Assembly (NCBI GenBank): GCA_947630105.1
Contig: CANRGD010000001.1
Location: 5,749-69,748 of the forward strand
Source of the DNA: an uncultured Bacilli bacterium
GTDB taxonomy: Bacteria > Bacillota_I > Bacilli_A > RF39 > UBA660
Length of the DNA stretch: 64,000 bases
Reading direction: 5' to 3'
Below, one piece after another: positions 7,072 through 54,027 of the stretch. Position 1 is the first letter of the stretch; every line of letters begins with the position of its first letter. The translations under genes were made by a program, and so were the position numbers. Under the pieces are notes generated by a model. It was not told the DNA's origin, did not search any database, and saw only the letters and a program-made list of their open reading frames with translations.

Positions 7072-7752
7072 TTACCTCCTAAAAATTTCCTTATTTTCAG
7101 CACTTTCAATAAATTTATAAATATTAGCGGGCTTTCGTCCTACAAAATTAACCTTTTTTTCTGTATCATAAATTAAATTTAAACTTAGTAGTTTTTTTCT
7201 AAAATTACGTCTATCCAGTTTTTTATTTAAAATTAATTCATATACTTTTTGAATTTCAGGTAAAGTAAATCCCAAAGGATATAAACTACGTAAAATATCT
7301 GTTCTTAAAATTGCTATCTTTAGTTTATTAATACTATCAGTTAATATTTCATTGTGATCATAAGCAAGCGCTGGTATCTCTGTAATTGAAAACCACTCTG
7401 CGTTAGATGTCTTTAAAGTTTCTTTTAATAGTTCTACATTTTTCAAATCAACTAAACCAATATAACTAACTGCCACCATTCTTATAAGAGGAGCTCTATC
7501 TTTTTTTCCAAATACATTACACAAACGTAAATCTATATTTTTAAGTCCGGTTTTTTCAAATATTTCTCTATTTAAACCTTCCATCAAATCTTCATCATTA
7601 TATAAAGCTCCTCCAACTAAAGCCCACATCCCATTATAAGGATTATTTTTTCTTTTTATTAATAAAACTTTCACTATTCCCTTATCCACAGTAAATATTG
7701 ATGAAATCAAATGAATACCTTGATTTTTATATTTAGGATTATTAATTTCCAA
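7072..7752 (-). CDS. NUDIX hydrolase fused to a C-terminal winged-helix domain (NrtR-like)
   Basis: 226 aa; Nudix box GGALYNDEDLMEGLNREIFEKTG, followed by a C-terminal domain typical of NrtR regulators. Confidence 0.55.
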   Translation of the reverse strand: MEINNPKYKNQGIHLISSIFTVDKGIVKVLLIKRKNNPYNGMWALVGGALYNDEDLMEGLNREIFEKTGLKNIDLRLCNVFGKKDRAPLIRMVAVSYIGLVDLKNVELLKETLKTSNAEWFSITEIPALAYDHNEILTDSINKLKIAILRTDILRSLYPLGFTLPEIQKVYELILNKKLDRRNFRKKLLSLNLIYDTEKKVNFVGRKPANIYKFIESAENKEIFRR

Positions 7753-7877
7753 AAAATCACCTCACTTATTTTAAGTATATGTGTATAGTTATACACTTGT
7801 CAATATTAAAAAAAACTGTTTACAAAATATAAACAGTTTTATAAAGTTATCTTTTAAATTTCAAATGAAAAATTTTT

Positions 7878-9335
7878 CTATTTATTTCTCATAAGTGGAA
7901 ATAAAATAACATCCTTAATATTTTCAGAATTAGTAAGTAATTGAACTACTCTATCAATTCCCATTCCCCAACCACTTATTGGCGGCATACCACATTCCAT
8001 AGCAGAAATATAGTCATAATCCATTGGCATTGCTTCTTCATCACCAAGTTCTTTTAATCGAGCTTGTTCTTCTAATCTTTTCATTTGTTCTTGAGGATCA
8101 ACAAGTTCAGAATAAGCATTAATAATTTCAGCTCCATTAATAATTAATTGGAATCTATCAGTAATTTCTGGATTATCATCATTAGCTCTAGCCAAAGGAC
8201 TTAAACTAATTGGATGTTCCGTTAAAAATATAGGATTAACTATATTAACACGGGCAACTTTTTTATAAAGTTGATCAACTAAATTACCATAACCTAAATC
8301 TTCTAATGCCGTTTCTGAATCAATTTCAATTTTATCTTCTTTTATCTTCTTTAATAATTTTTCTTTTGTATCATATTCTTTTATATCAATATTACTATAT
8401 TTTAAAATTAAATCTCTAAAACTTACTGCTTCCCATTCTCCACTTAAATCTACATCTTTATCACCAACAGTAATAGTCAAAGTACCAAATAATTTCAAAA
8501 TTATATTTTGTAACATTTCTCTTAAAAATTTCATATTATCTTTATAATTATAATAAGCACAATATCCTTCAATCATTGTAAAATCTTGCAAATGAGTAGC
8601 ATCCATTCCTTCATTTCTAAAACATCTAGCTATCTCAAAAACTTTATTAAATCCCCCTACTACTGCCCTTTTTAAATATGTTTCGGGAGCAATTCTTAAA
8701 TATAAATCTATATCTAATGCATTATGATGGGTAATAAAAGGTTTTGCTGTAGCTCCACTTGCTTTATTATTTAAAATTGGTGTCTCAATTTCAATATATC
8801 CTGCTTTATCTAAATAATCACGAATTTCTTTAATAAATCTACTTCTGAATAAGAATTTCTTTTTAGCATCATCATTCATTATTAAATCTAAATATCTTTC
8901 ACGATAAATAGTTTCTATATCTTCAACACCATGAAATTTTTCTGGTAATGGTCTTAATGCTTTTCCTAAAAAAGTTATCTTACTAGCTCTAACAGTTTTT
9001 TCTCCTGTATGAGTAGTAAACACTTCTCCTTCAACTCCAATAAAATCCCCTAAATCATAATTAGTTTTGAATTCACTATAAGCTTCTTCTCCTATCATAT
9101 CTAATTTTACAGAAACTTGAATTTTTCCCTTTATATCTCCAATAGTTAAAAAACTCATTTTTCCCATTTTTCTCATCAAAACTATTCTACCAGCAATACA
9201 AACACCAGTCACACCATCTTCTAATTGACTAGCCTCATCTAATTCATAATTTATTTCAAATCGTTCAGGATAAGGATTTTTAATATTTTGTAATTTTTCT
9301 CTTCTAACTAACTCTTGTTCACTTAATTCTCTCAT
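7878..9335 (-). CDS. lysS: Lysine--tRNA ligase
   Basis: 485 aa class II aaRS with N-terminal OB-fold anticodon-binding domain. Confidence 0.95.
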   Translation of the reverse strand: MRELSEQELVRREKLQNIKNPYPERFEINYELDEASQLEDGVTGVCIAGRIVLMRKMGKMSFLTIGDIKGKIQVSVKLDMIGEEAYSEFKTNYDLGDFIGVEGEVFTTHTGEKTVRASKITFLGKALRPLPEKFHGVEDIETIYRERYLDLIMNDDAKKKFLFRSRFIKEIRDYLDKAGYIEIETPILNNKASGATAKPFITHHNALDIDLYLRIAPETYLKRAVVGGFNKVFEIARCFRNEGMDATHLQDFTMIEGYCAYYNYKDNMKFLREMLQNIILKLFGTLTITVGDKDVDLSGEWEAVSFRDLILKYSNIDIKEYDTKEKLLKKIKEDKIEIDSETALEDLGYGNLVDQLYKKVARVNIVNPIFLTEHPISLSPLARANDDNPEITDRFQLIINGAEIINAYSELVDPQEQMKRLEEQARLKELGDEEAMPMDYDYISAMECGMPPISGWGMGIDRVVQLLTNSENIKDVILFPLMRNK

Positions 9336-9346
9336 AAAACTCTCCT

Positions 9347-10054
9347 TTAATCTTTAATTACTCTTGTATGAGCTAAATAATCATGAATTCCTTTACCACT
9401 TTTACTAAACATAACCATTAATATAGTTATAAAAATAATTACGTATCCTATAGCTTCAAACAAACCTGCTCCATAAAAATAAATATATTTTGAAGAACTT
9501 AACATAAATCCAAAAGAAATCATCTCAACTAATATTGAATTAATTATTAAACTTCTAAAAATCATTTGATTCATTGAAAGTGTTTCATTTTCAGAAACAA
9601 CCCTAATTTTCATCAATTTTTTACCAATAGTTTGTCCCTTATTATATAACTGATAAATAATAAAGTAGCACACTTCTATAATAATAGTAATTAAACTTAC
9701 TGCACCATTTACCCTAGCAGATTGATAAGATAAACTTACTGCTTCTGTTGCATAAGTTTCCAAATTAATTTTTCCTTCAATATATTTATTAACAATTTCT
9801 TGAGTACTGTTATTTATTTTTTCTGCTGACTTAGAATCAACAAAAGGAAATGATATAATTGACACTATCAATGATATAATAATCGCATCTATTAAATAAG
9901 CAACTACTCTTTGAAAAAACAATGCTTTTTCTTCAGATTCTACCTTTTCTTTTTTTTCTAATTTTTCTTCTTTTTCTGTATTTTTTTCTATTTTAACATT
10001 TTCTTCTTTTTCACTTTTTTTTTCATTTTCTTTCATTAGGCAATTCCTCCTCAA
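9347..10054 (-). CDS. RDD-family membrane protein with E/K-rich N-terminus
   Basis: 235 aa; RVVAYLIDAII RDD-type motif and TM helices. Confidence 0.4.
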   Translation of the reverse strand: MRRNCLMKENEKKSEKEENVKIEKNTEKEEKLEKKEKVESEEKALFFQRVVAYLIDAIIISLIVSIISFPFVDSKSAEKINNSTQEIVNKYIEGKINLETYATEAVSLSYQSARVNGAVSLITIIIEVCYFIIYQLYNKGQTIGKKLMKIRVVSENETLSMNQMIFRSLIINSILVEMISFGFMLSSSKYIYFYGAGLFEAIGYVIIFITILMVMFSKSGKGIHDYLAHTRVIKD

Positions 10055-11009
10055 ATTTCTTTAACAATTTGATTATATCATGAATATCAGAAGTTTGATA
10101 TATTTTATTTTTTAAAACGTTTGCTCCTTCAATACCCTTTAAATACCAACCAATATGATTTCTAATTTCTAAGCTAGCAACTTTTTCACTTTTTAATTCT
10201 AACAAATATTTTAAATGCTTTAAACACATTTGAATTTTATCTTTAGGAGAAACTAATAATGTCTTTTTATTATTTAAATAAAGTAAACTATTTTTAATCA
10301 ACCATGGATTTCCAAGAACGCCTCTTCCAATCATTACCGCATCACAACCAGTTTGTTCTAACATTTTTTTTACATCTTCACAAGTTTTAATATCTCCATT
10401 GCCAATAACAGGAATATTAACATTATTTTTTACATCTTTTATTATGTTCCAATCAGCCTTACCACTATATCCCTGACTTCTTGTTCTTGGATGTACACAT
10501 ATAGCCCTAGCACCAGCTTTTTCAATCATTTTAGCATTTTCAACTGCATTTATGCTATTCAAATCCCATCCACTTCTAATTTTTACCGTTACAGGTATTG
10601 GAACTGCATCAACCACAGCCTTAACAATTTCATAAACCTTAGTTGGATTTTTCAACAAAGCAGCTCCCGCTTGAGCTCGAAGTGCTACCTTAGGAACAGG
10701 ACACCCCATATTAATATCAATTATATCAGGATGCATATTTTCATAAATGTATTTGGCTGCCTCTACAAAAGATTCTTTATCAGAGCCAAATATTTGTTGA
10801 GCTATAGGTCTTTCTTCATCTTTCATATAAAGCATATCAATAGTCTTTTTATTATTATAAGTTATTGCTTTATCACTTACCATTTCCGCATAAATAAGAC
10901 CACAACCCATTTCTTTACAAATTCTTCTAAAAGCTGAATTACAAATACCAGCCATAGGTGCTAAAACAATTTGGTTTTCTATTTGAACATCACCAATATT
11001 CCATTTCAC
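10023..11009 (-). CDS. dusB: tRNA-dihydrouridine synthase B
   Basis: 328 aa; LAPMAG...DINMGCP FMN-binding TIM-barrel motifs. Confidence 0.85.
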   Translation of the reverse strand: MKWNIGDVQIENQIVLAPMAGICNSAFRRICKEMGCGLIYAEMVSDKAITYNNKKTIDMLYMKDEERPIAQQIFGSDKESFVEAAKYIYENMHPDIIDINMGCPVPKVALRAQAGAALLKNPTKVYEIVKAVVDAVPIPVTVKIRSGWDLNSINAVENAKMIEKAGARAICVHPRTRSQGYSGKADWNIIKDVKNNVNIPVIGNGDIKTCEDVKKMLEQTGCDAVMIGRGVLGNPWLIKNSLLYLNNKKTLLVSPKDKIQMCLKHLKYLLELKSEKVASLEIRNHIGWYLKGIEGANVLKNKIYQTSDIHDIIKLLKKFEEELPNERK

Positions 11010-16429: not shown

Positions 16430-16642
16430 TTAATCAAGAATTTCTAAATTATCAATAAGTAAATCACTATAACTAAATGATCTAATTTTAGAATCATTCA
16501 AAGTTATTACAAAAATAGCCGGATAAACACCTGTAATTGTTCCTTCAAACTCTTCAGTTTGATTTCTGCTCCCTTTAAATCTAAAGCTATGTTCTACTCC
16601 CTTATTATCCGAAACATACTTTTTTACCATACTTATTGTCAT
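16430..16642 (-). CDS. veg: Veg protein
   Basis: 70 aa Veg/DUF1021 pattern; adjacent to yabG as in Bacillus. Confidence 0.75.
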   Translation of the reverse strand: MTISMVKKYVSDNKGVEHSFRFKGSRNQTEEFEGTITGVYPAIFVITLNDSKIRSFSYSDLLIDNLEILD

Positions 16643-17160
16643 CTTGGATACCCCACATACATAGTACCATTAGTTATAATTCCACCTATCCCATCACTAC
16701 CATATTTTGTTTTTTCAATTAAACTAATTAAATCAATACTTTGATTTCTATCCGATAAAGCTAATGAGGAAGCTATAATAGCTGGATCTAAAGCATGAAT
16801 ATTAATTCTTTTAGGACTAGAAGCAAAATTAGCTCCTGCTTTAATTAATTCTTCATAATTAGATTGACATGCCCCTGCTATAACAATTAATTTATCTTGA
16901 CTCTTTTCATATTTTCTTATCTCTCTAATAGCCGCAATAAAATTACTAGTATTTTGGTAATTATCCAAATTATTTTTGTCTTTTTTCTTTGAATAAAAAG
17001 CATCATGTCCAGTAATTACTACTATATCAGGACGATATTCTTTTATAAGACCTAACACTTTATTTGACATTTCTACCTCAGCCAAAGTAAGACCATTAGC
17101 TTTAACACCCATACTATCATAAAAACTCATACATCTTTCTAAATATTCTTCATCTCCATC
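16639..17160 (-). CDS. yabG: Sporulation-specific protease YabG, 3' segment (residues after the conserved H-I-D junction). The caller's ORF continues to 17373 by reading through into element DNA
   Basis: The segment DGDEEYLERC...RPDIVVITGHDAF...IVIAGACQSNYEELIKAGANFASSPKRINIHALDP aligns with the C-terminal two-thirds of B. subtilis YabG. The upstream 71 residues of the called ORF have no YabG similarity. Confidence 0.8.
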   Translation of the reverse strand, partial: DGDEEYLERCMSFYDSMGVKANGLTLAEVEMSNKVLGLIKEYRPDIVVITGHDAFYSKKKDKNNLDNYQNTSNFIAAIREIRKYEKSQDKLIVIAGACQSNYEELIKAGANFASSPKRINIHALDPAIIASSLALSDRNQSIDLISLIEKTKYGSDGIGGIITNGTMYVGYPR

Positions 17161-17459
17161 TGCTGACCTTTGATAAGTAAATACGTGTGTTTTAAATAAA
17201 GGCAACTCTTTGCCATCATGTAGATTTAAGTAATTTTTCGGTCTCTCATATAACTTCTTTACTTTTTCATTTATCAACCTTTTTATTGCTTTTCTTTTAT
17301 CCTGTTCTTTTATTTCAGGTTCCTGCGATAACCTTAAATACAGAATAACCTTAGAGTCATTTGTTAGTTCCATAATTTACCTCCCTTTCTAACCTTTTAT
17401 ATATGCGACTTCTTGTGCCACTCTAATATATGATGCATTTTCTCTAATCATACATTCTC

Positions 17460-19022
17460 TTAATACAATTTTATTTTTTTAGGATCTCCTAATCCAAATT
17501 TATATGATATTTTTAATGTATTATCACTATAAACTACAATTTCTTTTATCAAATCTCTAACAACATTATTGATAAATTCATCATGATTTATAAATTTATT
17601 ATATTTATCAATCAATTCTTCTTTTCGTACTTTTTCATTTTTTGACTCCATTATTTCTTTTAGCATTTGCTCGGATTGTTCTTTTTGTTTTACTTCTTCC
17701 TCTTTTCGTTCAATGAACTCATTTAAAGTTATTTCTCCTGTAGTCTTTTTTAAATACAGATTTCTAATATTAGCATTATGAAATTCAATATCTTCCTTTA
17801 AATTAGATATTTTCAAATTGGGTCTTTCACTTTTTAATATATCCTTGGTTGCTTTAGAAACAATCTTTTCTTCATCAACATAATTATCGATGATATCCTT
17901 CAAATTTTCTTTAATTATTGTTCTTAATCGAGAATCTGCTATTTTTCTGTTTTTACACCGTTTTCTATCAACAACTTTCGTACATTCAAAGTAGTATTGT
18001 ACTTTTCTGTCTTTTTTTTGAACTCTACACGCTGTCATTATCCTTCCGCAAGTACCACAAATAACTAAACCACTGAATAAACCACAATAGTCATTTTTTT
18101 CCCTTCTTTTCGTTTGCCTTAATCTACTATTAGCAGCTTCAAATAGCTCATCAGATATAATAATCGGATGACAATTCTCTATTGCTTCTCTATCTCTTAT
18201 AGGTATTACTTGTCTTTGCTTTTGATGATAATCTTGCTTACTTGATTTTCTTTTAACAATTCTTCCCGTATAAGTTTTATTTTTGAGTATTCTATAAACA
18301 ACCTTGTTAGACCAATCATAGTAATATTTTTTATTTTTGCTTGGTGTCATTTTCATATGAATAACAGGTGGTATAACTTTATCCTTATTAAGCTCATCTG
18401 CTACTTCCTGCCTAGTCTTACCACTTGCTACTTCAGTAAAAATCCTTTTTACTACTTTAGCAGCATCTTCATCAATTTCAAGAAACCTTTTATCTTTAAT
18501 TTTCTTAATTTTATATCCATAAGGTGCCATAAATCCAATAAACTGTCCTTCTTCTGTTTTTGCCATTGCTACCTGTTTTCTTTTTACGGATGCCTCTTTA
18601 ACATATCGGTCGTTAATTAAAGAACGTATACCTAACATTACCTCTTGTTCATTATCTTGAGGATTATTACTATCAAAGCAATCATTGATAGCAATATATC
18701 TAACATTATTTTTAGGAAAGTATTCGCTTATATAATATGCAGTTTCTAAAAAGTTTCTTCCTAATCTGGACATATCTTTTGTTATAACTATGCCAATTAA
18801 ACCATTTTCAATATCTTCTTTTAATCTTTCAAATCCAGGTCGATCAAAAGTTATTCCCGAATACCCATCATCAATATATTCTCTATCTACTGTCAAACCC
18901 ATACTTTTAGCATAAGATTTTATAAAACCTAATTGATTATATATGCTAGATGAATATTCACTTTCTTTAACAAAATCTTCTTGAGATAATCGCCCATAGG
19001 AAACAGTTAATCGATTATCCAT
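17460..19022 (-). CDS. Large serine recombinase (resolvase catalytic domain, recombinase domain, zinc ribbon), second of a tandem pair
   Basis: YGRLSQED catalytic-serine motif, DDGYSG, VITKDMSRLGRN, and a C-terminal Cys cluster. The likely start is the ATG at 19022, preceded by a GAGGT RBS, which overlaps the upstream recombinase stop by 8 nt. Confidence 0.85.
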   Translation of the reverse strand: MDNRLTVSYGRLSQEDFVKESEYSSSIYNQLGFIKSYAKSMGLTVDREYIDDGYSGITFDRPGFERLKEDIENGLIGIVITKDMSRLGRNFLETAYYISEYFPKNNVRYIAINDCFDSNNPQDNEQEVMLGIRSLINDRYVKEASVKRKQVAMAKTEEGQFIGFMAPYGYKIKKIKDKRFLEIDEDAAKVVKRIFTEVASGKTRQEVADELNKDKVIPPVIHMKMTPSKNKKYYYDWSNKVVYRILKNKTYTGRIVKRKSSKQDYHQKQRQVIPIRDREAIENCHPIIISDELFEAANSRLRQTKRREKNDYCGLFSGLVICGTCGRIMTACRVQKKDRKVQYYFECTKVVDRKRCKNRKIADSRLRTIIKENLKDIIDNYVDEEKIVSKATKDILKSERPNLKISNLKEDIEFHNANIRNLYLKKTTGEITLNEFIERKEEEVKQKEQSEQMLKEIMESKNEKVRKEELIDKYNKFINHDEFINNVVRDLIKEIVVYSDNTLKISYKFGLGDPKKIKLY

Positions 19023-20604
19023 ATTTAACCTCATTCAAATTAAAATTAAAGAAAATTTTAACTGACTTATCTTCATGTATTTCTATTCTATTAACAAATG
19101 TCCTTAAGACTTCCTTATCGGGATTCTTTGCATTTAAAAATTCATTGATGTATTTCCTTTTCGTTTTTTCATCTGTTAGAATATTTTTGGCTTCACTTAC
19201 TGATATTTCTAAATCTACTATTTTTTCTGCACAATTTTTTCTATCTTTCTCTAGGTCACTTTTTATTCCAAAAAATTCCTCATTAGAAATAATATTATTT
19301 GCTCTATCCTTATATAAATCACTAATAACCTTATCAATAGTTATCATTTTTGATTTATATTCTTTTAAATTAGCTTCATATTCGCTTAAAACATTCAAAT
19401 CACATAATGATGTTTCATATTTTTTTTCTAAAGATTCATTATTAGAATATTTGATTAAGATAGTTCTAATTTCCTTTAAAACAAGTTCATTCAGATCTTC
19501 CTCTCTATAATAATGCATTGTACATACGTGATTACGATATGTTGCATAAGTTCTGCACAGATATATAGGAGTAATTTTTGTAGAGTCGTTCTTTCCTTTT
19601 ACTCGTCGTACTAACATAGTCTTACCACATTCGCCACAAACAACTAATCCTTTTAACAAGTAATCATATTGTCTATGACGTGTATCAGTCTTTCTTTTAG
19701 GAGTATTAACCTTTTCAAAAAGTTCAGTAGAAACAATTTGAGGTAATGCTCCTTTTTTTATTATCCACTTACTTTTTGGTAGTAGTCTTTTCTTTTTTGA
19801 CTTCAAGCTCACCCTTTCATATTTTCCTTGAATCAAAGTTCCTATATATACTTCATTTTCTAATATATGTTTAACAGAAGATGCCTTCCATATATTCGTA
19901 GTCACCGTGACTTTTTTCATTTTTTTACCTCTATAAACGTCAGGAGGACTAATCCCATCGTTTGTTAAAATTCTTGCTATCATCCCTTCCGATTTTCCAC
20001 TATCTTTTAATTCAAAGATTTTTTTAACTATTGGTGCAGCATACTCATCAATAACAAGTAGCTTATTATTTTCCTCTGATCTTTTATAACCAAAAGGAAC
20101 AGAACTACCTACAAATTCTCCTTTTTTCATCATATCGTGTCTAACACTTTTAATTTTTTTTGATATATCTTTTATATACATATCATTGATAACTGCCTTA
20201 AAAGGAATTATATCTTCTACCCCATTAGGAGTTAAAGAATCATAATTATCCAATATAGCAATATATCTAACATTATGTTCTGGAAAATATTTAAACACAT
20301 AATTACCAGTCTCTATAAACTCTCTACCTAATCTAGACATATCCTTTGTAATGACGCAATCAATTACTCCGTTTTCAATGTCATTTATTAGTCGACGAAA
20401 TGCAGGTCTATCAAAATTTCCACCAGAGTATCCATCATCAACATAGTAATCATATATTTCAATATTGTTTTTCAAAGCAAAATCTTTTATAAAGGCTCTT
20501 TGATTTTTGATACTTATACTTTCGTTATTTTTATTGTCATCTTCTATCGAAAGCCTTAAATAACCTCCTGCTTTGTATGTTTTATCAGTTAAGTAATTTA
20601 TCAT
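19015..20604 (-). CDS. Large serine recombinase, first of a tandem pair
   Basis: YLRLSIED, DDGYSGG, VITKDMSRLGRE, CGECG...C zinc ribbon. The start at 20604 is preferred because of its GGGAGGG RBS; the caller's ORF extends to 20637. Confidence 0.85.
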   Translation of the reverse strand: MINYLTDKTYKAGGYLRLSIEDDNKNNESISIKNQRAFIKDFALKNNIEIYDYYVDDGYSGGNFDRPAFRRLINDIENGVIDCVITKDMSRLGREFIETGNYVFKYFPEHNVRYIAILDNYDSLTPNGVEDIIPFKAVINDMYIKDISKKIKSVRHDMMKKGEFVGSSVPFGYKRSEENNKLLVIDEYAAPIVKKIFELKDSGKSEGMIARILTNDGISPPDVYRGKKMKKVTVTTNIWKASSVKHILENEVYIGTLIQGKYERVSLKSKKKRLLPKSKWIIKKGALPQIVSTELFEKVNTPKRKTDTRHRQYDYLLKGLVVCGECGKTMLVRRVKGKNDSTKITPIYLCRTYATYRNHVCTMHYYREEDLNELVLKEIRTILIKYSNNESLEKKYETSLCDLNVLSEYEANLKEYKSKMITIDKVISDLYKDRANNIISNEEFFGIKSDLEKDRKNCAEKIVDLEISVSEAKNILTDEKTKRKYINEFLNAKNPDKEVLRTFVNRIEIHEDKSVKIFFNFNLNEVKYG

Positions 20605-20687
20605 TTTCACCCTCCCTTTATTCCTAACTAACTCCACATAACACAGTCATTATAAATTACTTATCAATTTATTCCCAATGTGCAAAT

Positions 20688-20813
20688 TTATTGATATTTT
20701 GTATTTTGCAGTGTTGACTTCAAATATCTTTCAAATGCCTCTAAAATTTTTTCACTAATTGTTGGAGCATTTTCATCAAAAACACATATAACTAATTCCT
20801 TGCCTTTATCCAT
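20688..20813 (-). CDS. Small 41-aa ORF (MDKGKELVICVFDENAPTISEKILEAFERYLKSTLQNTKYQ) with a strong RBS, just upstream of the recombinase pair
   Basis: AGAGGAGG Shine-Dalgarno 7 nt upstream of the ATG. Not in the supplied ORF track because it is too short. Confidence 0.3.
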   Translation of the reverse strand: MDKGKELVICVFDENAPTISEKILEAFERYLKSTLQNTKYQ

Positions 20814-21031
20814 GGTATTCCTCCTCTTTAAATTTATGAATATTTTCTTAATTAATGAACAAAAAATTCCTTAATATTTTACATAAGTTAAATTTTTTAC
20901 CATTGATTTAAAATGTTATAGTAAAATAAATATTGAAAACAAAAAAGCAAACTCACCTTTATAGAATTTGCTCATTTACTCATTTCCTATTTCTTTTCAA
21001 TAATATCGTATGTAAATTAAATACTATATAA

Positions 21032-21490
21032 TTATTTTAAATTATAACCTAACTTTTCTAATTCCATATTTGCAATATATGATAATTCTTCTTTTGAAAG
21101 TTCATCAATTTCATAAAAATCAGCACCAAGTGAATCATCATTTTGATCATCAATCTTAACATTTCTTTTTATTTGTCCATCATATTCTAACACTTTGTAA
21201 AAAACACCAACATGGTGACCTTTTATTATAACATCTTTATAAGGCCATTCAAAAGTAACCGAATCAGCATCAAATAATTCATGCTTTTTTACTTCTATAC
21301 CAACTTCTTCTACTAACTCTCTTTTTAGTGTATCTTCTGGTCTTTCACAAAATTCAATCGTACCACCAGGCAAATCTAACTTTCCATCATATGGACCACC
21401 AGATTTTTTTATCAATAAAATCTTACCTTCATTTACTATTAAAGCATAAGCTCCCAATTGTTTGTATTCTTTATATTTCTCCACCTTCAT
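21032..21490 (-). CDS. NUDIX hydrolase (element cargo)
   Basis: 152 aa; Nudix box GGTIEFCERPEDTLKRELVEEVGIEV. Confidence 0.8.
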   Translation of the reverse strand: MKVEKYKEYKQLGAYALIVNEGKILLIKKSGGPYDGKLDLPGGTIEFCERPEDTLKRELVEEVGIEVKKHELFDADSVTFEWPYKDVIIKGHHVGVFYKVLEYDGQIKRNVKIDDQNDDSLGADFYEIDELSKEELSYIANMELEKLGYNLK

Positions 21491-21518
21491 CGCTCCTATT
21501 TAGCATCATTATATCATA

Positions 21519-22673
21519 TTATTTCTTTAACACATAACTAAATTTATTTTTATCATTTTTATGATTATCTTCCCAATCAAAACTTACCTCTTGCTCTCTA
21601 CAATAATCACAAAAAGGTATAGGTTTATTTAATTTTTCAATTGCTTCCCAACCATCAGTAATATCATTAATTTTTACATAATCGTCGTCAGAAATTTCAA
21701 AGTTTGTTCCATACTTTTTATTAAGAATATCAATTAATAAAGGATAATAACATTTTGAAATTTTTCCATCTCTTAAAAACCTACAAAATCTGCCATAACA
21801 AATTTCACTAGCAAAATTATTCTCACTTTTCTTTTCTAGGGATAATCTTGTCTGAAATTGTTTTATAACTTCTGGTTCTTTAAAATAATCATCATTAATT
21901 AAGTATTTAATATTATATTTTTTTAATGTTTCTTCAATACTTTGTATTTTTTCATATGTAGGTTTATATAAGGAAATAGAAATCATTATATTATTATCTG
22001 ATATTGTTTGCAATGTTTCATTATCCAATCTATCAATTAACAGACCATTTGTTACAATAACAATTCTAGATTTTTTTAAAATATTTCTAGCTATTTTAAC
22101 TAATTCTGAAATTTTTGGATGGAGAAAAGGTTCTCCCCCTAGGATTCTAAAATTATATAGAAAAAATTTATCAGATACCTTTTTCAAATCTTCTTTAAAT
22201 TTATTTACATCAACATAATTATTATCATAAATATTTGAAAAATGAGCACAACCTTTACAATTTAAATTACATTGATCAACAATATTCATCTCTAAATAAT
22301 TTAAAAAAGGAATATTAAAATCAATCTTTTCAAGGTGTTGATATAAATCTTCTATAGTATTTGGATTAGAAAATAAAATTTCCTCACTTACTACATACAC
22401 ATTCAAATATTCATGCTGTTTTAAATAAGTAATTGTTTCTCCTAATATCATAGGCTTTTTTGTAATAAATATATTACTATCTTTATCTATGTTAAAATAT
22501 TCATCAACACCAATGGTAGGAATATCTCTATAGATATTTTGTGGCAACCTTTTATTATCATTAGAAATTTTTAAAAAACCATCAATTGGAATATGAAATT
22601 TTTCTAATATTTCGGCTGTTTCAGCTGCAAAAGGTCCTGTACCAAAAATGAAATTATTTGCCATACTTATCAC
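21519..22673 (-). CDS. Radical SAM enzyme with N-terminal extension and C-terminal Cys-rich (SPASM/twitch-like) region (element cargo)
   Basis: 384 aa; CNLNCKGCAH CxxxCxxC cluster; additional C-terminal cysteines CYGRFCRF, CYYP, CDYC. Confidence 0.8.
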   Translation of the reverse strand: MISMANNFIFGTGPFAAETAEILEKFHIPIDGFLKISNDNKRLPQNIYRDIPTIGVDEYFNIDKDSNIFITKKPMILGETITYLKQHEYLNVYVVSEEILFSNPNTIEDLYQHLEKIDFNIPFLNYLEMNIVDQCNLNCKGCAHFSNIYDNNYVDVNKFKEDLKKVSDKFFLYNFRILGGEPFLHPKISELVKIARNILKKSRIVIVTNGLLIDRLDNETLQTISDNNIMISISLYKPTYEKIQSIEETLKKYNIKYLINDDYFKEPEVIKQFQTRLSLEKKSENNFASEICYGRFCRFLRDGKISKCYYPLLIDILNKKYGTNFEISDDDYVKINDITDGWEAIEKLNKPIPFCDYCREQEVSFDWEDNHKNDKNKFSYVLKK

Positions 22674-23658
22674 CTGCTTTCTGATAAACCTTAGGATGCT
22701 CTAAAGAAGCAATTCTAAAATTTAAATTTTCATACATCCAATCAAATTTTCCATATTGTTTCAATTCACAATCAACAATCATCTTTAATATTACGTACAT
22801 TCTATAAATTTCTATTCTATTTAATTCTGATGAATTAAGTGATGATTTATTAAAACCCTTCAAAAAATGAGAACTCATTTTACCATCAATAGTATGAAAA
22901 TAAAATGTCATTAACTCATCACAATAATACAAATCTGTAAAATCAACTATACCAGAAATATTACCTTCATTAACAAGAACATTGCCATCCCATATATCTG
23001 TATGACTTAAACATAAATTTGTTATATTATTAAGATTTTCCTTATTTGATGATATTACATTTATAATTCTTTCATACATATTTTTTCCTAAATCCATATT
23101 TTTAGTAGATGCATCATTTAATAATAATTGAAATAAATTTAATACAAACTCAAAATTATCATTAAATCTTTTCTCAGGCTGACTAGGTAGAAAAAATTCA
23201 TTACCTTTTAACATACATATTTTAGAGCTAAAAAAGCCAATCTGATATTCTATCTTTTCAATTTCTTTTGAAGTTAACTTTTCCTTGCATTGTAAAAAAT
23301 TATTTCCTGGTATATAACTCATAAAAAAGTAAGGCTCTTTACAAATATTACTAGTATCACTATATCTTAATAATCTAGGAGATGGAAAATCTATTGTTTC
23401 CATTTTCTTTAACATTTCGGATTCCCACCATAAAATATTTCTATCTACGGTTATCATTTTACTTTCATCTTTAGGTGCTATTTTAAGAACGACTTTATTA
23501 CCATCATCATCTATTAAATATACTGCATTTTTCATTCCACCACTTAATTTCATAATATTTAATTTATTGGATTTTTTTTGAAATGATTCTTCATACATTA
23601 ATTTAATTATTTCTTCTGATTGATAATTTTTTACGGAAGAATTATTATTTGTTTCCAT
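22654..23658 (-). CDS. APH/choline-kinase-family phosphotransferase (element cargo)
   Basis: 334 aa; catalytic loop LSHTDIWDGNVLV and IVDFTD (DFG-like). Overlaps its neighbours on both sides, consistent with an operon. Confidence 0.65.
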   Translation of the reverse strand: METNNNSSVKNYQSEEIIKLMYEESFQKKSNKLNIMKLSGGMKNAVYLIDDDGNKVVLKIAPKDESKMITVDRNILWWESEMLKKMETIDFPSPRLLRYSDTSNICKEPYFFMSYIPGNNFLQCKEKLTSKEIEKIEYQIGFFSSKICMLKGNEFFLPSQPEKRFNDNFEFVLNLFQLLLNDASTKNMDLGKNMYERIINVISSNKENLNNITNLCLSHTDIWDGNVLVNEGNISGIVDFTDLYYCDELMTFYFHTIDGKMSSHFLKGFNKSSLNSSELNRIEIYRMYVILKMIVDCELKQYGKFDWMYENLNFRIASLEHPKVYQKAGDKYGK

Positions 23659-25591
23659 TTTTGGCTCCTTGATATCCTTTTATGTATTTTTTACAAACTT
23701 CGTTAGTATATTGGAATTCATCATTATCTACTGTTAAATGAAAAATATTATCATAAGCATAATTAGATATTTTATGTTTATAATACTTTCTAATAAACGA
23801 TTTTAAATTAGCAACTTCCTCAAACATAAAACCTTTCATTTTATTAAAATACATATAATTTGATACTTTTACCAGCATATTTAATATTACTATTGTATTA
23901 CTATCATATTTATCAATCAAAGTACTTGCTTTTATATATGGAATTCCTTCAAATTCATGATTATCTTCATAAATTGCATTTATAAACTCACTATACTTAT
24001 CCTTTAAATCAATTGGTATACATTCTTGTATTGATACTTTTTCACCAATAAGGCCTACTGCTTCTTTCATCATATTCTCATCTAAAGAATTCCATAAAAT
24101 ACCTATACAAGGTAATTCTATTGATGGCATTTTATTCTTATCTATTTTTCCATCTTCGATTAAAGTATTTATAATTGATAATACTTCATCTAATTTTCTA
24201 AACTTCTTAACATTATTTGCTGTTAATAGTAAATTCATTAAATTATTTATCACATCCTGTAATTCTTTTTTAAATTCATCTTTTTCTAAAATACCTTCTT
24301 TGTGGTCTCTCATATAATTCCTAATAATATGAACCAAACTATTATATAATATTTTTTCAGCAGCATCTCTATACTCTTCCCCTTGAGATAGAACTTCTTC
24401 ATATTTTTCTTTTCCCCAATCTTGAAGTGTAAATAATTCAGATGATATTTTATTACCTGTTAATGATACAGATTTTCTTTTAACATAGTGATAAAATGGT
24501 ATATTAACAAGTGCAAATGATTTATCCTCCTTACACAATCTGTAAATATAATCAGAATCTTCTTTAAAACAAGTTTTATCAAATCTAATATTTCTAATAG
24601 AAGAAAGTTTATATAACTTATCCCAAGCAGGAATCAATATTGTTGCATCCGAATATGCATTGATTAAATCTAAATGACCCTCTACTAATTTAACTCCTTT
24701 TTGTTCACAACTTACATCTTTAATATCACCATTTTTCATATGAATATAAAAACTACTTTCACATACATCTGCATTTGTTTTTTCCGCGGTTTTCATTAGG
24801 GTTTCAATCATAGAATTTTCAACATAATCATCAGAATCAAAAAAACATATATATTCTCCTGTTGCTAACTCTATTCCTTTATTTCTAGTCTCAGCAAGTC
24901 CACAATTTTGCTGATGAACAACTTTTATTCTACTATCCGCCTCGGCAAGTAAATTACATATTTTTAATGAATCATCTGTTGAGCCATCATCAATTAAAAT
25001 TATTTCTAAATTTCTATAAGTTTGATTTGTTATACTTTTAATACAACGTACCAAATAATTAGATGTGTTATATATAGGTACTACAACAGTAACTTTTTTA
25101 TCATTATAAATATTATAGTCAATATATTCTTGTAATTTATCTTTCCAATCACTATCAGTATCATTTATTTTTAAATGATAAAAAGAATCATTATAAGTTG
25201 ACTCAATACTTTTAACTCTATATTTTTGTAATAATTCCATTCCATTATCTAAACAGCTATGATACTGATTAGAATTTGCTTTTATTACTAAATTACAATT
25301 ACTAAAAATATATGAATCTTCTAAATTAGAATAATTAATAACAACTATATCATTCTTCCTAAAATGAGCTAAATTTGCCATTATTTCATCATCCACTTTA
25401 TTTCTAATTTTCATAAAATATAAAATCTTTGAATTATAATTCATATTTTTTTCTTTATCGTAATAATTATCCTGTTCTAAAATTTTTTTTAGTATTTGAT
25501 CTACATCTAAATACTTAAATGAATAATTTTCAATTAAATACTCTGCAATTTCCTTTCCTACTCTATTATTACCGGTAATTCCTACAATCAC
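23645..25591 (-). CDS. Three-part protein: N-terminal P-loop nucleotide-kinase-like domain, central family-2 glycosyltransferase domain, C-terminal domain of unknown function (element cargo); GTG start
   Basis: 648 aa. GITGNNRVGKE P-loop. VTVVVPIYNTSNYL...LIDDGSTDDS with FFDSDDYV DxD motif, typical of GT2. GTG start with a GGGGGTG RBS. Confidence 0.7.
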   Translation of the reverse strand: MIVGITGNNRVGKEIAEYLIENYSFKYLDVDQILKKILEQDNYYDKEKNMNYNSKILYFMKIRNKVDDEIMANLAHFRKNDIVVINYSNLEDSYIFSNCNLVIKANSNQYHSCLDNGMELLQKYRVKSIESTYNDSFYHLKINDTDSDWKDKLQEYIDYNIYNDKKVTVVVPIYNTSNYLVRCIKSITNQTYRNLEIILIDDGSTDDSLKICNLLAEADSRIKVVHQQNCGLAETRNKGIELATGEYICFFDSDDYVENSMIETLMKTAEKTNADVCESSFYIHMKNGDIKDVSCEQKGVKLVEGHLDLINAYSDATILIPAWDKLYKLSSIRNIRFDKTCFKEDSDYIYRLCKEDKSFALVNIPFYHYVKRKSVSLTGNKISSELFTLQDWGKEKYEEVLSQGEEYRDAAEKILYNSLVHIIRNYMRDHKEGILEKDEFKKELQDVINNLMNLLLTANNVKKFRKLDEVLSIINTLIEDGKIDKNKMPSIELPCIGILWNSLDENMMKEAVGLIGEKVSIQECIPIDLKDKYSEFINAIYEDNHEFEGIPYIKASTLIDKYDSNTIVILNMLVKVSNYMYFNKMKGFMFEEVANLKSFIRKYYKHKISNYAYDNIFHLTVDNDEFQYTNEVCKKYIKGYQGAKNGNK

Positions 25592-25648: not shown

Positions 25649-26085
25649 TTAAATGTCCAAGGAATCACAGAGTTCATTCTTATATTAAATGTTTTAATTA
25701 AAGTGTTTTATTTTTACTAGATTCTTATTCACAATCTTTTATAAATTTTTTTATATAGTCTATACATCTTAGAGAAATATATCTTTCTTTAACATCTGCT
25801 ATCCAAATTACTTTACAATTAGATATATTTTCAACCTTTCATTCTAAAAAAAGATATGTATAGCAAAAAAAAGAACTTAAATTTATTAAATTCTTGTTAT
25901 GTTTTATTAGTTAAGAATATATCAATTTTATTTACTTAAGAAATGTCACCCCTCCTTTTGAGTGAAGAATCTTTTAAATTTTTTACCTATTTTTTGGCAT
26001 TTTTGAGATTTTTTATGAATTTTAAAGTTTAGTATTTCCCTATTTTATAAGGGTTTGCGAGTGGTTATTTAATTTAATGTCAGCG

Positions 26086-26357
26086 TCAATATGTAATATT
26101 TTTCCTGGTATATAAAAATATTTATTTCTATCCATTTCTAAACTTCTTAAATTACTTTCTATAATTTGTTTATCCTCAGCCTTTCCTTCTGTATTAGCAA
26201 TCACTAAATCGTTAATATCACTATCCGCATAAAGTCTTAAATCAACACCTTTTAACAAAACACTATTTTGATTAATTTCAATGATTTTAAATAAAATATC
26301 ATGTTGATGAGAAATTCTAGTAACATAATCACCTATATTAAATTGCAATAACATCAT
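26086..26357 (-). CDS. yabG: Sporulation-specific protease YabG, 5' segment (N-terminal ~91 residues). The caller's ORF runs on to a stop at 26040 inside the element
   Basis: MMLLQFNIGDYVTRISHQHDILFKIIEINQ...LRLYADSDINDLV...YFYIPGKILHID aligns with the B. subtilis YabG N-terminus (MQFQIGDMVARKSYQMDVLFRIIGIEQ...RLIADSDFSDLV...HMPGKVLHLDGD). Confidence 0.8.
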
Positions 26358-26400
26358 CTCCAGTAAAAGTTTATGATAAAAAAAAAGAAATAGTCCAAAA

Positions 26401-52337: not shown

Positions 52338-53720
52338 TTACACAATCCCAATATCCTTCTTTAATTTTTCAATAATATTAGCTAAATCTTTATTTACTTT
52401 TATTTCATTTTCAATTTTCTCAACAGAATGCATTACTGTAGAATGATCTTTTCCTCCAAATTCAGTTCCTATTTTAGGAAAAGATTCACTGGTCATATTT
52501 CTACACAGATACATAGCTATTTGCCGAGGAAAAGAAATATTTGAACTTCGTTTTTTACTTCTAATATCTTCAACTGATATTTGAAAATATTCGGAGACTA
52601 TTTTTTGTATTCTTTGAATATCGTTTTTCTCTCCCATTCCTTTACTAATAAAGTCTTTTAAGGCCTCTATAGCCAGATCTAAATTAATATCAGCTCCTCC
52701 CATTATTGTGGAATAAGCAATTAACCTTGTTATTGAACCTTCTAATTGTCTAACATCTGGTCCTATATTAGAAGCAATATATTCAACAACATCTTCAGGA
52801 ATTTCTTTTTCAAAATTCCCAGCAATAATTTTTTTCTTAATAATTTCCGTTTTTAAAGCAAAATCAGGTGGAAATATATTAACAGTCAGTCCCCAACAAA
52901 ATCTTGTTCTTAATCTATCTTCTAGTAATTTCAAATCATCAGGAGATCTATCAGATGAAATAATAATTTGCTTACTATCATTATATAATGAATTAAAAGT
53001 GTGGAAAAATTCTTGTTGTGTTTGAGTAGCTCCACCTAAAAATTGAATATCATCTATTATCAAAACATCTATATTTCGATACTTATTTTTAAAAAAATCA
53101 ACATAATTAAAATTAGTACCTTTTTCATCTTTCTTATTTATTCCAATAAAATCTTGAATAAATTGATCACTTGTAACATATAAAACACGTTTATTAGTAT
53201 TTTCAAAAATATAATTTCCAATAGCATGCATTAAATGAGTTTTACCTAACCCACTATTTCCATATAAAAATAAAGGATTATACATATTACCAGGATTTTC
53301 CGCAACAGATAATGCTGCTGCATGAGCAAATTTATTACTATTCCCTACTATAAAATTTTCAAAAGTATATTTTTTCTTCAAATTTGAACTAGAATAATTA
53401 AAAGAAATAGGACTATTTTCATTATTAGTAATACTAACACTTTTTTCTTTCTCTTTTTCTTCTTCTAATTCAATTTCTTCCTTTAACAACAATACTAAAT
53501 CATAATTATTTCCTGTAATTTCATATAATTTTTCATTAATTAAATTTGAATAATTATCAATTAAATGTTTCTTATGTATAGGCATAGGAACTATTATATA
53601 AGCTTTATTATTTTCAAATTTATATAATTCCGTATCAGAAAACCAAGTATCAAATGAAAGGGAGCTAAGTTCAATTTTTATAGAATCTAGAAATTTTGAC
53701 CATAAAATTTTTACATTCAT
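52338..53720 (-). CDS. dnaA: Chromosomal replication initiator DnaA
   Basis: AAA+ P-loop GNSGLGKTHL and a C-terminal DnaA-box-binding domain. Start set to the internal ATG at 53720 (MNVKILWSKFL...), the canonical DnaA N-terminus; the caller's ORF begins upstream at 53813. Confidence 0.95.
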   Translation of the reverse strand: MNVKILWSKFLDSIKIELSSLSFDTWFSDTELYKFENNKAYIIVPMPIHKKHLIDNYSNLINEKLYEITGNNYDLVLLLKEEIELEEEKEKEKSVSITNNENSPISFNYSSSNLKKKYTFENFIVGNSNKFAHAAALSVAENPGNMYNPLFLYGNSGLGKTHLMHAIGNYIFENTNKRVLYVTSDQFIQDFIGINKKDEKGTNFNYVDFFKNKYRNIDVLIIDDIQFLGGATQTQQEFFHTFNSLYNDSKQIIISSDRSPDDLKLLEDRLRTRFCWGLTVNIFPPDFALKTEIIKKKIIAGNFEKEIPEDVVEYIASNIGPDVRQLEGSITRLIAYSTIMGGADINLDLAIEALKDFISKGMGEKNDIQRIQKIVSEYFQISVEDIRSKKRSSNISFPRQIAMYLCRNMTSESFPKIGTEFGGKDHSTVMHSVEKIENEIKVNKDLANIIEKLKKDIGIV

Positions 53721-54027
53721 TCCACCATCTCCCCACAAGATAAATAATTTAAATTTAGTGTACCTTAATTTGTGCAAAAAATAAATGTTTTTTTTACAAA
53801 AAAAATTATCCACATTTTATCAACAACTTTTTCCACTAATAAGAGTATTGAATTTAAATGCTAAAGCAAAGTTATCCACATTTTCCACAATTTATTAATA
53901 ACAATGTTCCAAAAAAAAATACACAAGCTTGTGTATAAAGTGAAAAACTCTAAAATTAAAGTTTTAATTGACAAAATATCAATAATATTATTATAATAAT
54001 GTAGATTTATGTCTGGAGGTGGAACAA
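53721..54027. other. oriC region upstream of dnaA with DnaA boxes
   Basis: Perfect TTATCCACA at 53806..53814 and 53872..53880, plus near-boxes TTTTCCACA (53881..53889) and TTTTCCACT (53829..53837); AT-rich flanks. Confidence 0.75.

Follow-up and report, generated by a model that had tools for sequence, protein, structure and literature searches.

A translationally coupled pair of large serine recombinases on a mobile island that interrupts yabG, a sporulation protease gene, in uncultured gut bacteria

Among the closest described counterparts of the locus reported here are elements which interrupt sporulation genes and are removed in the mother cell by large serine recombinases (LSRs), as documented for skin, SPbeta, gin and yin (PMC5595907, PMC10747680). 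The phage-derived skin (SpoIVCA) and SPbeta (SprA/SprB) elements of Bacillus subtilis each employ a single LSR, the gene of which adjoins one att site, together with a dedicated recombination directionality factor (RDF), and their mother-cell excision rebuilds a late sporulation gene. The element yin of Clostridium botulinum V73 interrupts yabG and restores this gene upon excision, for which a σK-type context has been proposed; its authors found no other yabG insertions (PMC10747680). In Bacillus cereus ATCC10987, the sporulation gene gerE is interrupted by the non-phage element gin, and an operon of two LSR genes within it, girAB, was likened to ccrAB by those who described it (PMC5595907). 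Two adjacent LSRs are likewise present in Tn6105 (PMC3158075). Here, we describe a related arrangement in a stretch of 64,000 nucleotides from an uncultured Bacilli bacterium (contig CANRGD010000001.1 of assembly GCA_947630105.1, positions 5,749 to 69,748 of the forward strand; referred to as the window). A non-phage mobile island of 8.9 kb interrupts the sporulation protease gene yabG in this window, and two adjacent LSR genes, LSR1 and LSR2, form its integrase module. A preliminary description of the pair had started from the premise that intervening elements mostly use one LSR, which is outdated in view of girAB plus girC in gin (PMC5595907).

The island in yabG and its attachment sites

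The island comprises 8,927 bp and splits yabG within the codons of the invariant HIDGD motif. The interruption is evident because two separate open reading frames (ORFs) match complementary parts of the YabG profile. In Pfam, the ORF 16639–17373, just downstream of LSR2, covers the YabG peptidase profile from position 56 through its last position, and a 105-aa ORF at 26040–26357 matches positions 1–66 of the Pfam profile Peptidase_U57. The recombinase genes, the yabG segments and the junction elements are as follows.

19015..20604, minus strand: LSR1, large serine recombinase of 529 aa, nucleophile Ser19
17460..19022, minus strand: LSR2, large serine recombinase of 520 aa, nucleophile Ser13
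26086..26357, minus strand: 5′ segment of yabG, codons 1–91, ending ...PGKILHI-D (Pfam Peptidase_U57)
16639..17158, minus strand: 3′ segment of yabG, from ...GDEEYL to the stop (Pfam and NCBIfam YabG)
26086..26087, minus strand: attL crossover dinucleotide GA, in the Asp91 codon (junction comparison)
17159..17160, minus strand: attR crossover dinucleotide GA (junction comparison and empty-site locus L031)
26062..26085, minus strand: P′ att arm of the island, CGCTGAC ATTAAAT TAAATAAC (inverted repeat with the P arm)
17161..17184, minus strand: P att arm of the island, TTTACTTAT CAAAG GTCAGCA; family consensus GTTACTTAACAAnnnTCAGCA (24 aligned attR junctions)

The dinucleotide GA represents the sole bases common to attL (...CATATT-GA-CGCTGAC...) and attR (...GTCAGCA-GA-TGGAGAT...) at the junction. 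Joining the yabG pieces at this position yields a YabG of 263 aa, which matches Peptidase_U57 positions 1–280 in one stretch (308 bits) and shows 71–87% identity to the intact YabG of 12 relatives in a gap-free alignment. Residues H89-I90-D91-G92-D93, within the PGKILHIDGD motif, are invariant in the rebuilt protein and in these relatives. Crossovers at GC or at the second GA of GCTGAC/GCAGAT would rebuild HIDADGD with two residues extra; these earlier models were rejected because all 12 intact relatives have HIDGD without additional residues. An empty site is provided by locus L031, in which an uninterrupted yabG is found in the same gene order; the right flank of the window is 80% identical to it, with the homology resuming exactly at GA, and many close relatives carry an intact yabG. 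The context of a sporulation intervening element, into which the preliminary description had placed the pair, is supported by the insertion in yabG and by the restoration of its ORF upon excision in silico.

The attP site reconstructed from three complete elements and one further attL is a dyad of the form GTTAyTTA, N6/7, rTCAGCr-GA-yGCTGAy. Around the crossover, the window-derived attP reads ...TTTACTTATCAAAGGTCAGCA-GA-CGCTGACATTAAATTAAATAACCAC... and the attB ...GGAAAAATATTACATATT-GA-TGGAGATGAAGAATATTTAG.... The distance between the LSR2 stop and attR varies from 27 to 915 nt across loci. The island is flanked by the ksgA-yabG-veg-spoVG-yabP-yabQ-divIC-tilS-ftsH neighbourhood near the replication origin, which is marked by dnaA and a sign change of the GC skew at about 54 kb (window 52338–54000); it thus lies about 28–37 kb from the origin in a conserved origin-proximal sporulation gene cluster.

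Further observations concern the target gene and its surroundings in other genomes. A scan of metagenomes for attL mostly returned intact yabG genes of other clades encoding HIDAD, plus an unrelated abundant gut gene, and L112 was the only new attL obtained. The HIDAD variant (GAT GCT GAT), in place of HIDGD, is encoded by the intact yabG of L038, L041, L044 and about 30 other metagenome loci; with it, the identity of attB to the attP core of the island extends to GA-yGCTGAy, and the variant may be a preferred or ancestral target. In L008, yabG is interrupted twice in one genome, the second, separate insertion (7631–10818) carrying a single unrelated LSR (about 27% identity) and interrupting the yabG 3′ part some 50 codons beyond the site of the tandem LSRs, on its downstream side. 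In the window, an ATG at 17373 with a AAAGGGAGG ribosome binding site (RBS) reads into the yabG 3′ part 16639–17158, and the same holds for L002, L016, L028/L029 and L118. With this in-frame RBS and ATG, a fusion protein containing the yabG 3′ (catalytic) part could be made even while the island is in place; in most other islands, the GTTACTTAACAA arm contains a stop codon and no such start is provided. Finally, the P arm (GGTTGACTTAATAAGTATCAG...) downstream of LSR2 in L006 (CAJUHO010000025.1, 4440–4700; metagenome-assembled genome (MAG) from mouse gut) is not joined to yabG. It is joined to a homologue of the LSR-distal left end of the islands of the window, L004 and L112, with cargo next to it. 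This attP-like joint may indicate that the contig represents an excised circle or a tandem array; it is about 12 nt shorter than the window-derived attP.

The recombinase pair, the small ORF and their putative expression signals

Two full-length LSR genes lie on the minus strand at 17460–20637 and are arranged head-to-tail, as stated in the preliminary description, and the signatures YLRLSIED and YGRLSQED, DDGYSG and VITKDMSRLGR are all present. The longest ORF of LSR1 starts with GTG 20637; its likely start is ATG 20604, which is preceded by GGGAGGG and a 5-nt spacer. The start codon of LSR2 (ATG, 19022–19020) and the stop codon of LSR1 (TAA, 19017–19015) lie in an 8-nt overlap, read as ATGGATAA, which had been correctly noted before. 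The GAGGT RBS also exists (19032–19028), not inside the overlap as had been claimed, but within the LSR1 coding sequence 5 nt upstream of the LSR2 ATG. The junction is retained in 26 related loci, confirming a conserved coupled pair of LSR paralogues: it ranges from a 4-nt gap to a 29-nt overlap, mostly with 1, 8 or 11 nt of overlap, and an RBS of the GAGG/GGAGG type is kept in each of the 18 junction sequences inspected. Because junction and RBS are kept across related loci, the coupled arrangement is not a product of chance.

LSR1 and LSR2 are 34% identical over their full length, and the Pfam domains Resolvase (PF00239), Recombinase (PF07508) and Zn_ribbon_recom (PF13408) were detected in both. 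Ser19 of LSR1 and Ser13 of LSR2 align with Ser15 of TnpX. AlphaFold2 (AF2) models with a predicted local distance difference test (pLDDT) score of 81 and 84, respectively, display a complete LSR architecture in either case. The catalytic domain is linked through the long helix E to the recombinase domain and the zinc ribbon, behind which a pair of long antiparallel helices forms the coiled coil, and a helix and a β hairpin make up the C-terminus. A Foldseek search with the LSR1 model matched the full-length structures of SprA, Bxb1 and phiC31 integrase, SprA being only a distant structural match with 19% identity.

Among 25–26 orthologues of each protein, the nucleophile motif Y-x-R-x-S, K-D-x-S-R-L-G-R and the four zinc-ribbon cysteines are invariant, as is DDG-x-S-G in both families save for one Ser to Thr exchange in one LSR1; the recombinase and DNA-binding zinc-ribbon domains are conserved as well. 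An inactivating catalytic substitution in one copy, which the preliminary description had envisaged as a finding against a two-recombinase system, was thus not found. The median pairwise ratios of non-synonymous to synonymous substitutions (dN/dS) are 0.17 for LSR1 and 0.20 for LSR2, compared with 0.22 for the adjacent yabG segment and 0.14 for spoVG, and both recombinases are under purifying selection at levels similar to those of host genes. With junction, selection, invariant residues, domains and predicted architecture all preserved, neither copy is a relic, and both look catalytically competent. In a neighbour-joining tree, calculated without support values, LSR1 and LSR2 form two clades with mirror-image branching, so that the pairing is older than the diversification of the family; the two clades group together relative to TndX and an LSR triplet from the gut. 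In L013 and L015 (about 9977–10001), LSR1 lacks an ATG, GTG or TTG at the expected start although its frame is open and conserved, which may reflect an unusual start codon or a sequencing error.

Upstream of LSR1 resides a small conserved ORF, orf41, which is listed here with the putative expression signals of the island and of yabG.

20688..20813, minus strand: orf41, conserved 41-aa protein with the core ELVICVYDDNAPSINEKILEAFERYLKSTL (tblastn and alignment)
20831..20858, minus strand: conserved promoter-like element (σE-like) TCATTAA-13 nt-CATAAATT, 17 nt upstream of the orf41 ATG
17201..17214, minus strand: terminator-like hairpin GGCAAAGAGTTGCC with subsequent T run, downstream of LSR2 (hairpin kept in several loci)
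26365..26394, minus strand: σK-like promoter of yabG, AC-17 nt-CATAAACTT (assigned from the consensus only)

As detected by tblastn, a homologue of orf41 precedes LSR1 in nearly every locus, even in the most divergent members of the family, and one precedes a related truncated LSR in a context resembling an integrative and conjugative element (ICE) in L024. The protein has no Pfam or NCBIfam match and is the best and only candidate for an accessory or directionality factor. TCATTAA followed by a 13–14-nt spacer and CATAnnnT is present in 16 of the 19 distinct sequences upstream of orf41, compared to 4% of shuffled sequences, and ends 14–17 nt before the start codon; the other three contain the CATA box with an ATA-type −35 element. 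The motif resembles the σE-type promoter upstream of yabP in the window and the σE consensus of B. subtilis. The σK-like assignment for yabG likewise follows the B. subtilis consensus. Matches in a scan for σ70 promoters remained at chance level. Altogether, these signals would fit an expression of the recombination operon in the mother cell. The promoter, orf41, LSR1, LSR2, the terminator and the att arm form one transcription unit and a conserved block.

Spread of the islands and proposed action of the recombinases

The module of orf41, LSR1, LSR2, att arm and yabG 3′ part recurs on at least 25 other contigs from gut metagenomes. A scan with one genome per species revealed 18 loci, all in gut MAGs labelled uncultured Bacilli, Clostridium or Tenericutes, with the order orf41-LSR1-LSR2 in every evaluable locus and with the yabG 3′ part, veg and spoVG directly downstream in 15 of them; the species-representative MAGs that contain the module number 17. 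Further contigs, recovered via protein hits, share this layout down to identities of 55% for LSR1 and 44% for LSR2, and the carrier metagenomes derive from rabbit, mouse, ruminant and human-associated gut. One candidate, P0111 in L024, had been considered as a solo relative of LSR1 and was dropped as unusable, its first ~47 residues including the nucleophile being absent and an insertion sequence lying next to it.

The LSR module is far less diverged than the yabG flank. Synonymous divergence (dS) of the LSR genes versus that of the flank amounts to 0.21 versus 0.96 between the window and L002, 0.02 versus 1.03 between L007 and L010, and 0.07 versus 1.48 between L005 and L017. In addition, near-identical modules bear different cargo. 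These dS differences, the exchange of cargo and the presence of relatives with intact yabG demonstrate that the island moves horizontally between host species, and it always lands at the same yabG site, the most conserved stretch of this gene.

The smallest island has a size of about 5.6 kb (L022), and the cargo differs widely, ranging from glycosylation genes to RHS/YD toxins, an M26 peptidase of 3,432 aa, PemK toxins and a racemase. In the window, the cargo is composed of four genes.

23645..25591, minus strand: family-2 glycosyltransferase, 648 aa (Pfam Glycos_transf_2)
22654..23658, minus strand: APH/fructosamine-kinase-like phosphotransferase (Pfam APH)
21519..22673, minus strand: radical SAM protein (Pfam Radical_SAM)
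21032..21490, minus strand: NUDIX hydrolase (Pfam NUDIX)

Cargo regions were delineated in the window (21032–25591), L001 (274–9550), L026 (1–5748), L020 (1–9609) and L118 (2114–3619). Some islands contain the glycosyltransferase/radical-SAM/NUDIX/kinase set, and RHS/YD toxins, the M26 peptidase with a dockerin and PemK modules are found elsewhere; the glycosylation cargo recalls spore-surface polysaccharide genes. Within the island of the window, a Pfam search of the encoded proteins detected no phage genes, no intact recombinase exists besides LSR1 and LSR2, and an Rfam search gave no match. A short ORF between LSR2 and the att arm (17164–17373, minus strand) resembles a decayed N-terminus of a third serine recombinase, as found at the same place in L002, L028 (11601–11804) and L026 (11620–12015); that of L026 is a 131-aa Resolvase-domain ORF in which the nucleophilic Ser is replaced by Asn. 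The short ORFs of the window, L002 and L028 begin with (V/A)I(L/I)Y(L/V)RLS, and this short motif is all that the 70-aa leader of the window has in common with the resolvase fragment of L026, between which BLASTP found no similarity. The remnants hint at an ancestral triplet or a later duplication.

In the mechanism that we propose, LSR1 and LSR2 would act together as a two-subunit (heteromeric) TnpX/TndX-like serine recombinase, introducing 2-nt staggered cuts at GA in the attP dyad and in attB, with active-site serines contributed by both subunits. Joint action is favoured by the strict co-conservation of the two proteins. Driven by a σE-like sporulation promoter of the mother cell, the recombination operon would cut the island from the mother-cell chromosome and yabG, a σK-type gene, would be rebuilt late in sporulation; the forespore copy of yabG would remain interrupted and pass the island on. 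The 41-aa protein might participate as accessory or directionality factor. Taken as a whole, comprising the island module, the joint action of the LSRs, the sporulation timing and a role of orf41, we consider this the best explanation and moderately probable. Only tentatively can it be extended to an obligate heteromeric developmental recombinase, in which LSR1 and LSR2 would occupy different positions in the synapse, both serines would be needed and the 41-aa protein would set the direction. As an equally tentative example, one LSR might sit on the arms of attP, which are symmetric, and its partner on the asymmetric attB site within yabG.

Several points weigh against the proposed joint and sporulation-timed action. 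The co-presence of two LSRs is no proof of a co-requirement, because the developmental excision of gin does not need girAB, an operon which is silent during sporulation (PMC5595907). Moreover, both attP arms bear the same motifs, and a homodimer on attP therefore fits at least as well as a heterodimer. On the basis of this precedent and of the alike arms, the main rival is a reaction in which only one LSR, most plausibly LSR2 which adjoins the att arm, integrates and excises at yabG. The other would serve a different reaction such as multimer resolution, tandem-island accretion or recombination at secondary sites, as proposed for girAB, and the attP-like joint of L006 could originate from tandem or circular forms. 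We nevertheless rate a single acting enzyme as rather unlikely, given that the island offers no third intact LSR for the job, that every locus has the two genes translationally coupled and preceded by a single promoter, that LSR1 and LSR2 are equally constrained and co-diverging, and that islands down to the 5.6-kb size of L022 have no invariant content other than the pair and orf41. The two enzymes might also be divided by direction, one integrating (attP × attB) and the other excising (attL × attR) in place of a directionality factor, in line with two intact enzymes and with the lack of a recognisable RDF family in the Pfam and NCBIfam searches. This appears very improbable: we found no precedent, co-translation from one promoter offers no temporal separation of the activities, the conserved small ORF is on hand as an accessory factor, and TnpX and TndX each perform both directions alone. 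The same TnpX/TndX-type enzymes are not known to require a directionality factor, and orf41 may have another role.

With respect to the timing, YabG is to our knowledge not essential for sporulation in model organisms, and a timed repair of yabG is hence not obligatory. The promoter motif taken in the window alone is not rarer than expected by chance (3 found versus 1.0 expected), and its class is assigned by resemblance to B. subtilis consensus sequences. The island might accordingly be an ordinary integrative element which uses a conserved stretch of a gene dispensable for growth, with an excision not tied to sporulation and with carriers that are yabG-deficient or produce a truncated YabG. 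The most conserved yabG motif would be a convenient target across species, some islands supply the in-frame RBS and ATG for the yabG 3′ part without excision, and yin was seen excised at all time points (PMC10747680). Such an element is, however, unlikely in view of the bipartite CATA-type promoter at a fixed distance from orf41 with its resemblance to the σE-type promoter of yabP, and of the mother-cell excision observed for every LSR insertion in a sporulation gene that has been studied (PMC5595907, PMC5499854). We thus retain the joint, sporulation-timed action of LSR1 and LSR2 as the favoured scenario.

Comparison with known recombinases and elements

The existence of a family of yabG-splitting islands in uncultured gut spore-formers is of interest since the only yabG insertion published so far had been regarded as unique. 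The family also bears on what multi-LSR modules such as ccrAB, girAB and the ICE triplets are for, as it offers many natural variants of a minimal pair with a small conserved ORF. The sharply defined attB in a conserved gene and the reconstructable attP render the system tractable in vitro, and a heteromeric integrase with a fixed 2-bp crossover could bring orthogonal specificity to the serine-integrase toolbox. If true, the obligate heteromer would be the first two-subunit serine integrase wired into the sporulation programme; its 50-bp sites and islands of 5.6–9 kb would then constitute a tractable model for the use of several LSRs in staphylococcal cassette chromosome (SCC) elements and ICE triplets.

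As to the recombinases themselves, the kinship with CcrA/CcrB suggested in the preliminary description did not hold. The scores of the NCBIfam models (NF047344, NF047343) are far below the cut-offs, with 111.2 and 75.9 bits versus 900 for CcrB and, for LSR1 only, 59.4 versus 700 for CcrA. TnpX provides the best match with a solved structure for both catalytic domains (E 5e-26 and 4e-28), and among annotated full-length proteins TndX is the best hit, being 34.8% identical to LSR1 over 94% of its length; judged by these matches, TnpX and TndX are the closest solved or annotated relatives. Pfam DUF4368 (PF14287) was not reported for LSR1 or LSR2 at E≤0.001, and the orthologue P0037 carries a precomputed hit. 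The crossover at GA in the yabG island corresponds to the 2-bp targets of enzymes of the TnpX (Tn4451) and TndX (Tn5397) type (PMC3158075). In contrast to the pair with its one strict target, these are single enzymes of conjugative or mobilisable transposons which act alone and choose their targets loosely.

In its organization, the pair resembles CcrA/CcrB of SCCmec as a two-gene operon of LSR paralogues which always occur together on a non-phage island with variable cargo. C-terminal β strands after the coiled coil, predicted by AF2 for the pair and remarked upon for Ccr (PMC12286644), are also shared. SCCmec differs in its integration at the 3′ end of rlmH (orfX) instead of yabG, in the host clade and in the promoter. 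For CcrA/CcrB, both proteins are needed, and several att pairings recombine without an RDF. The serine integrase triplets of streptococcal ICEs are likewise adjacent LSR paralogues which cluster by position, trace back to ancient duplications, insert inside protein-coding genes and leave repeats of 2–8 bp (PMC4701971). They consist, however, of three genes on conjugative elements targeting mutT, traG and hsdM (PMC4701971), whereas the island carries two LSR genes, lacks conjugation genes and targets a sporulation gene. A further array of three adjacent LSR genes (557, 549 and 513 aa), the junctions of which abut or overlap by 16 nt, is found in L036 (MT837243.1, 2080–6929), a 7.3-kb human faecal ‘phage’ scaffold, and elements of gut Firmicutes seem to contain such coupled arrays of several LSRs commonly.

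Modules with several LSRs have thus been described before, as has one insertion in yabG, yin. In gin, however, excision is carried out by the separate LSR GirC with the RDF GirX and girAB is silent and dispensable (PMC5595907), whereas the coupled pair is the only recombinase of the island, adjoins the att site and is preceded by a sporulation-type promoter. Similarly, yin, reported from a single strain, is a complete prophage in which one LSR is accompanied by a candidate RDF of 72 aa (PMC10747680), whereas the island contains two coupled LSRs, lacks phage genes and is spread over many uncultured gut species. The family is distinguished from all systems compared in that a non-phage island within a sporulation gene has a coupled LSR pair as its sole recombinase.

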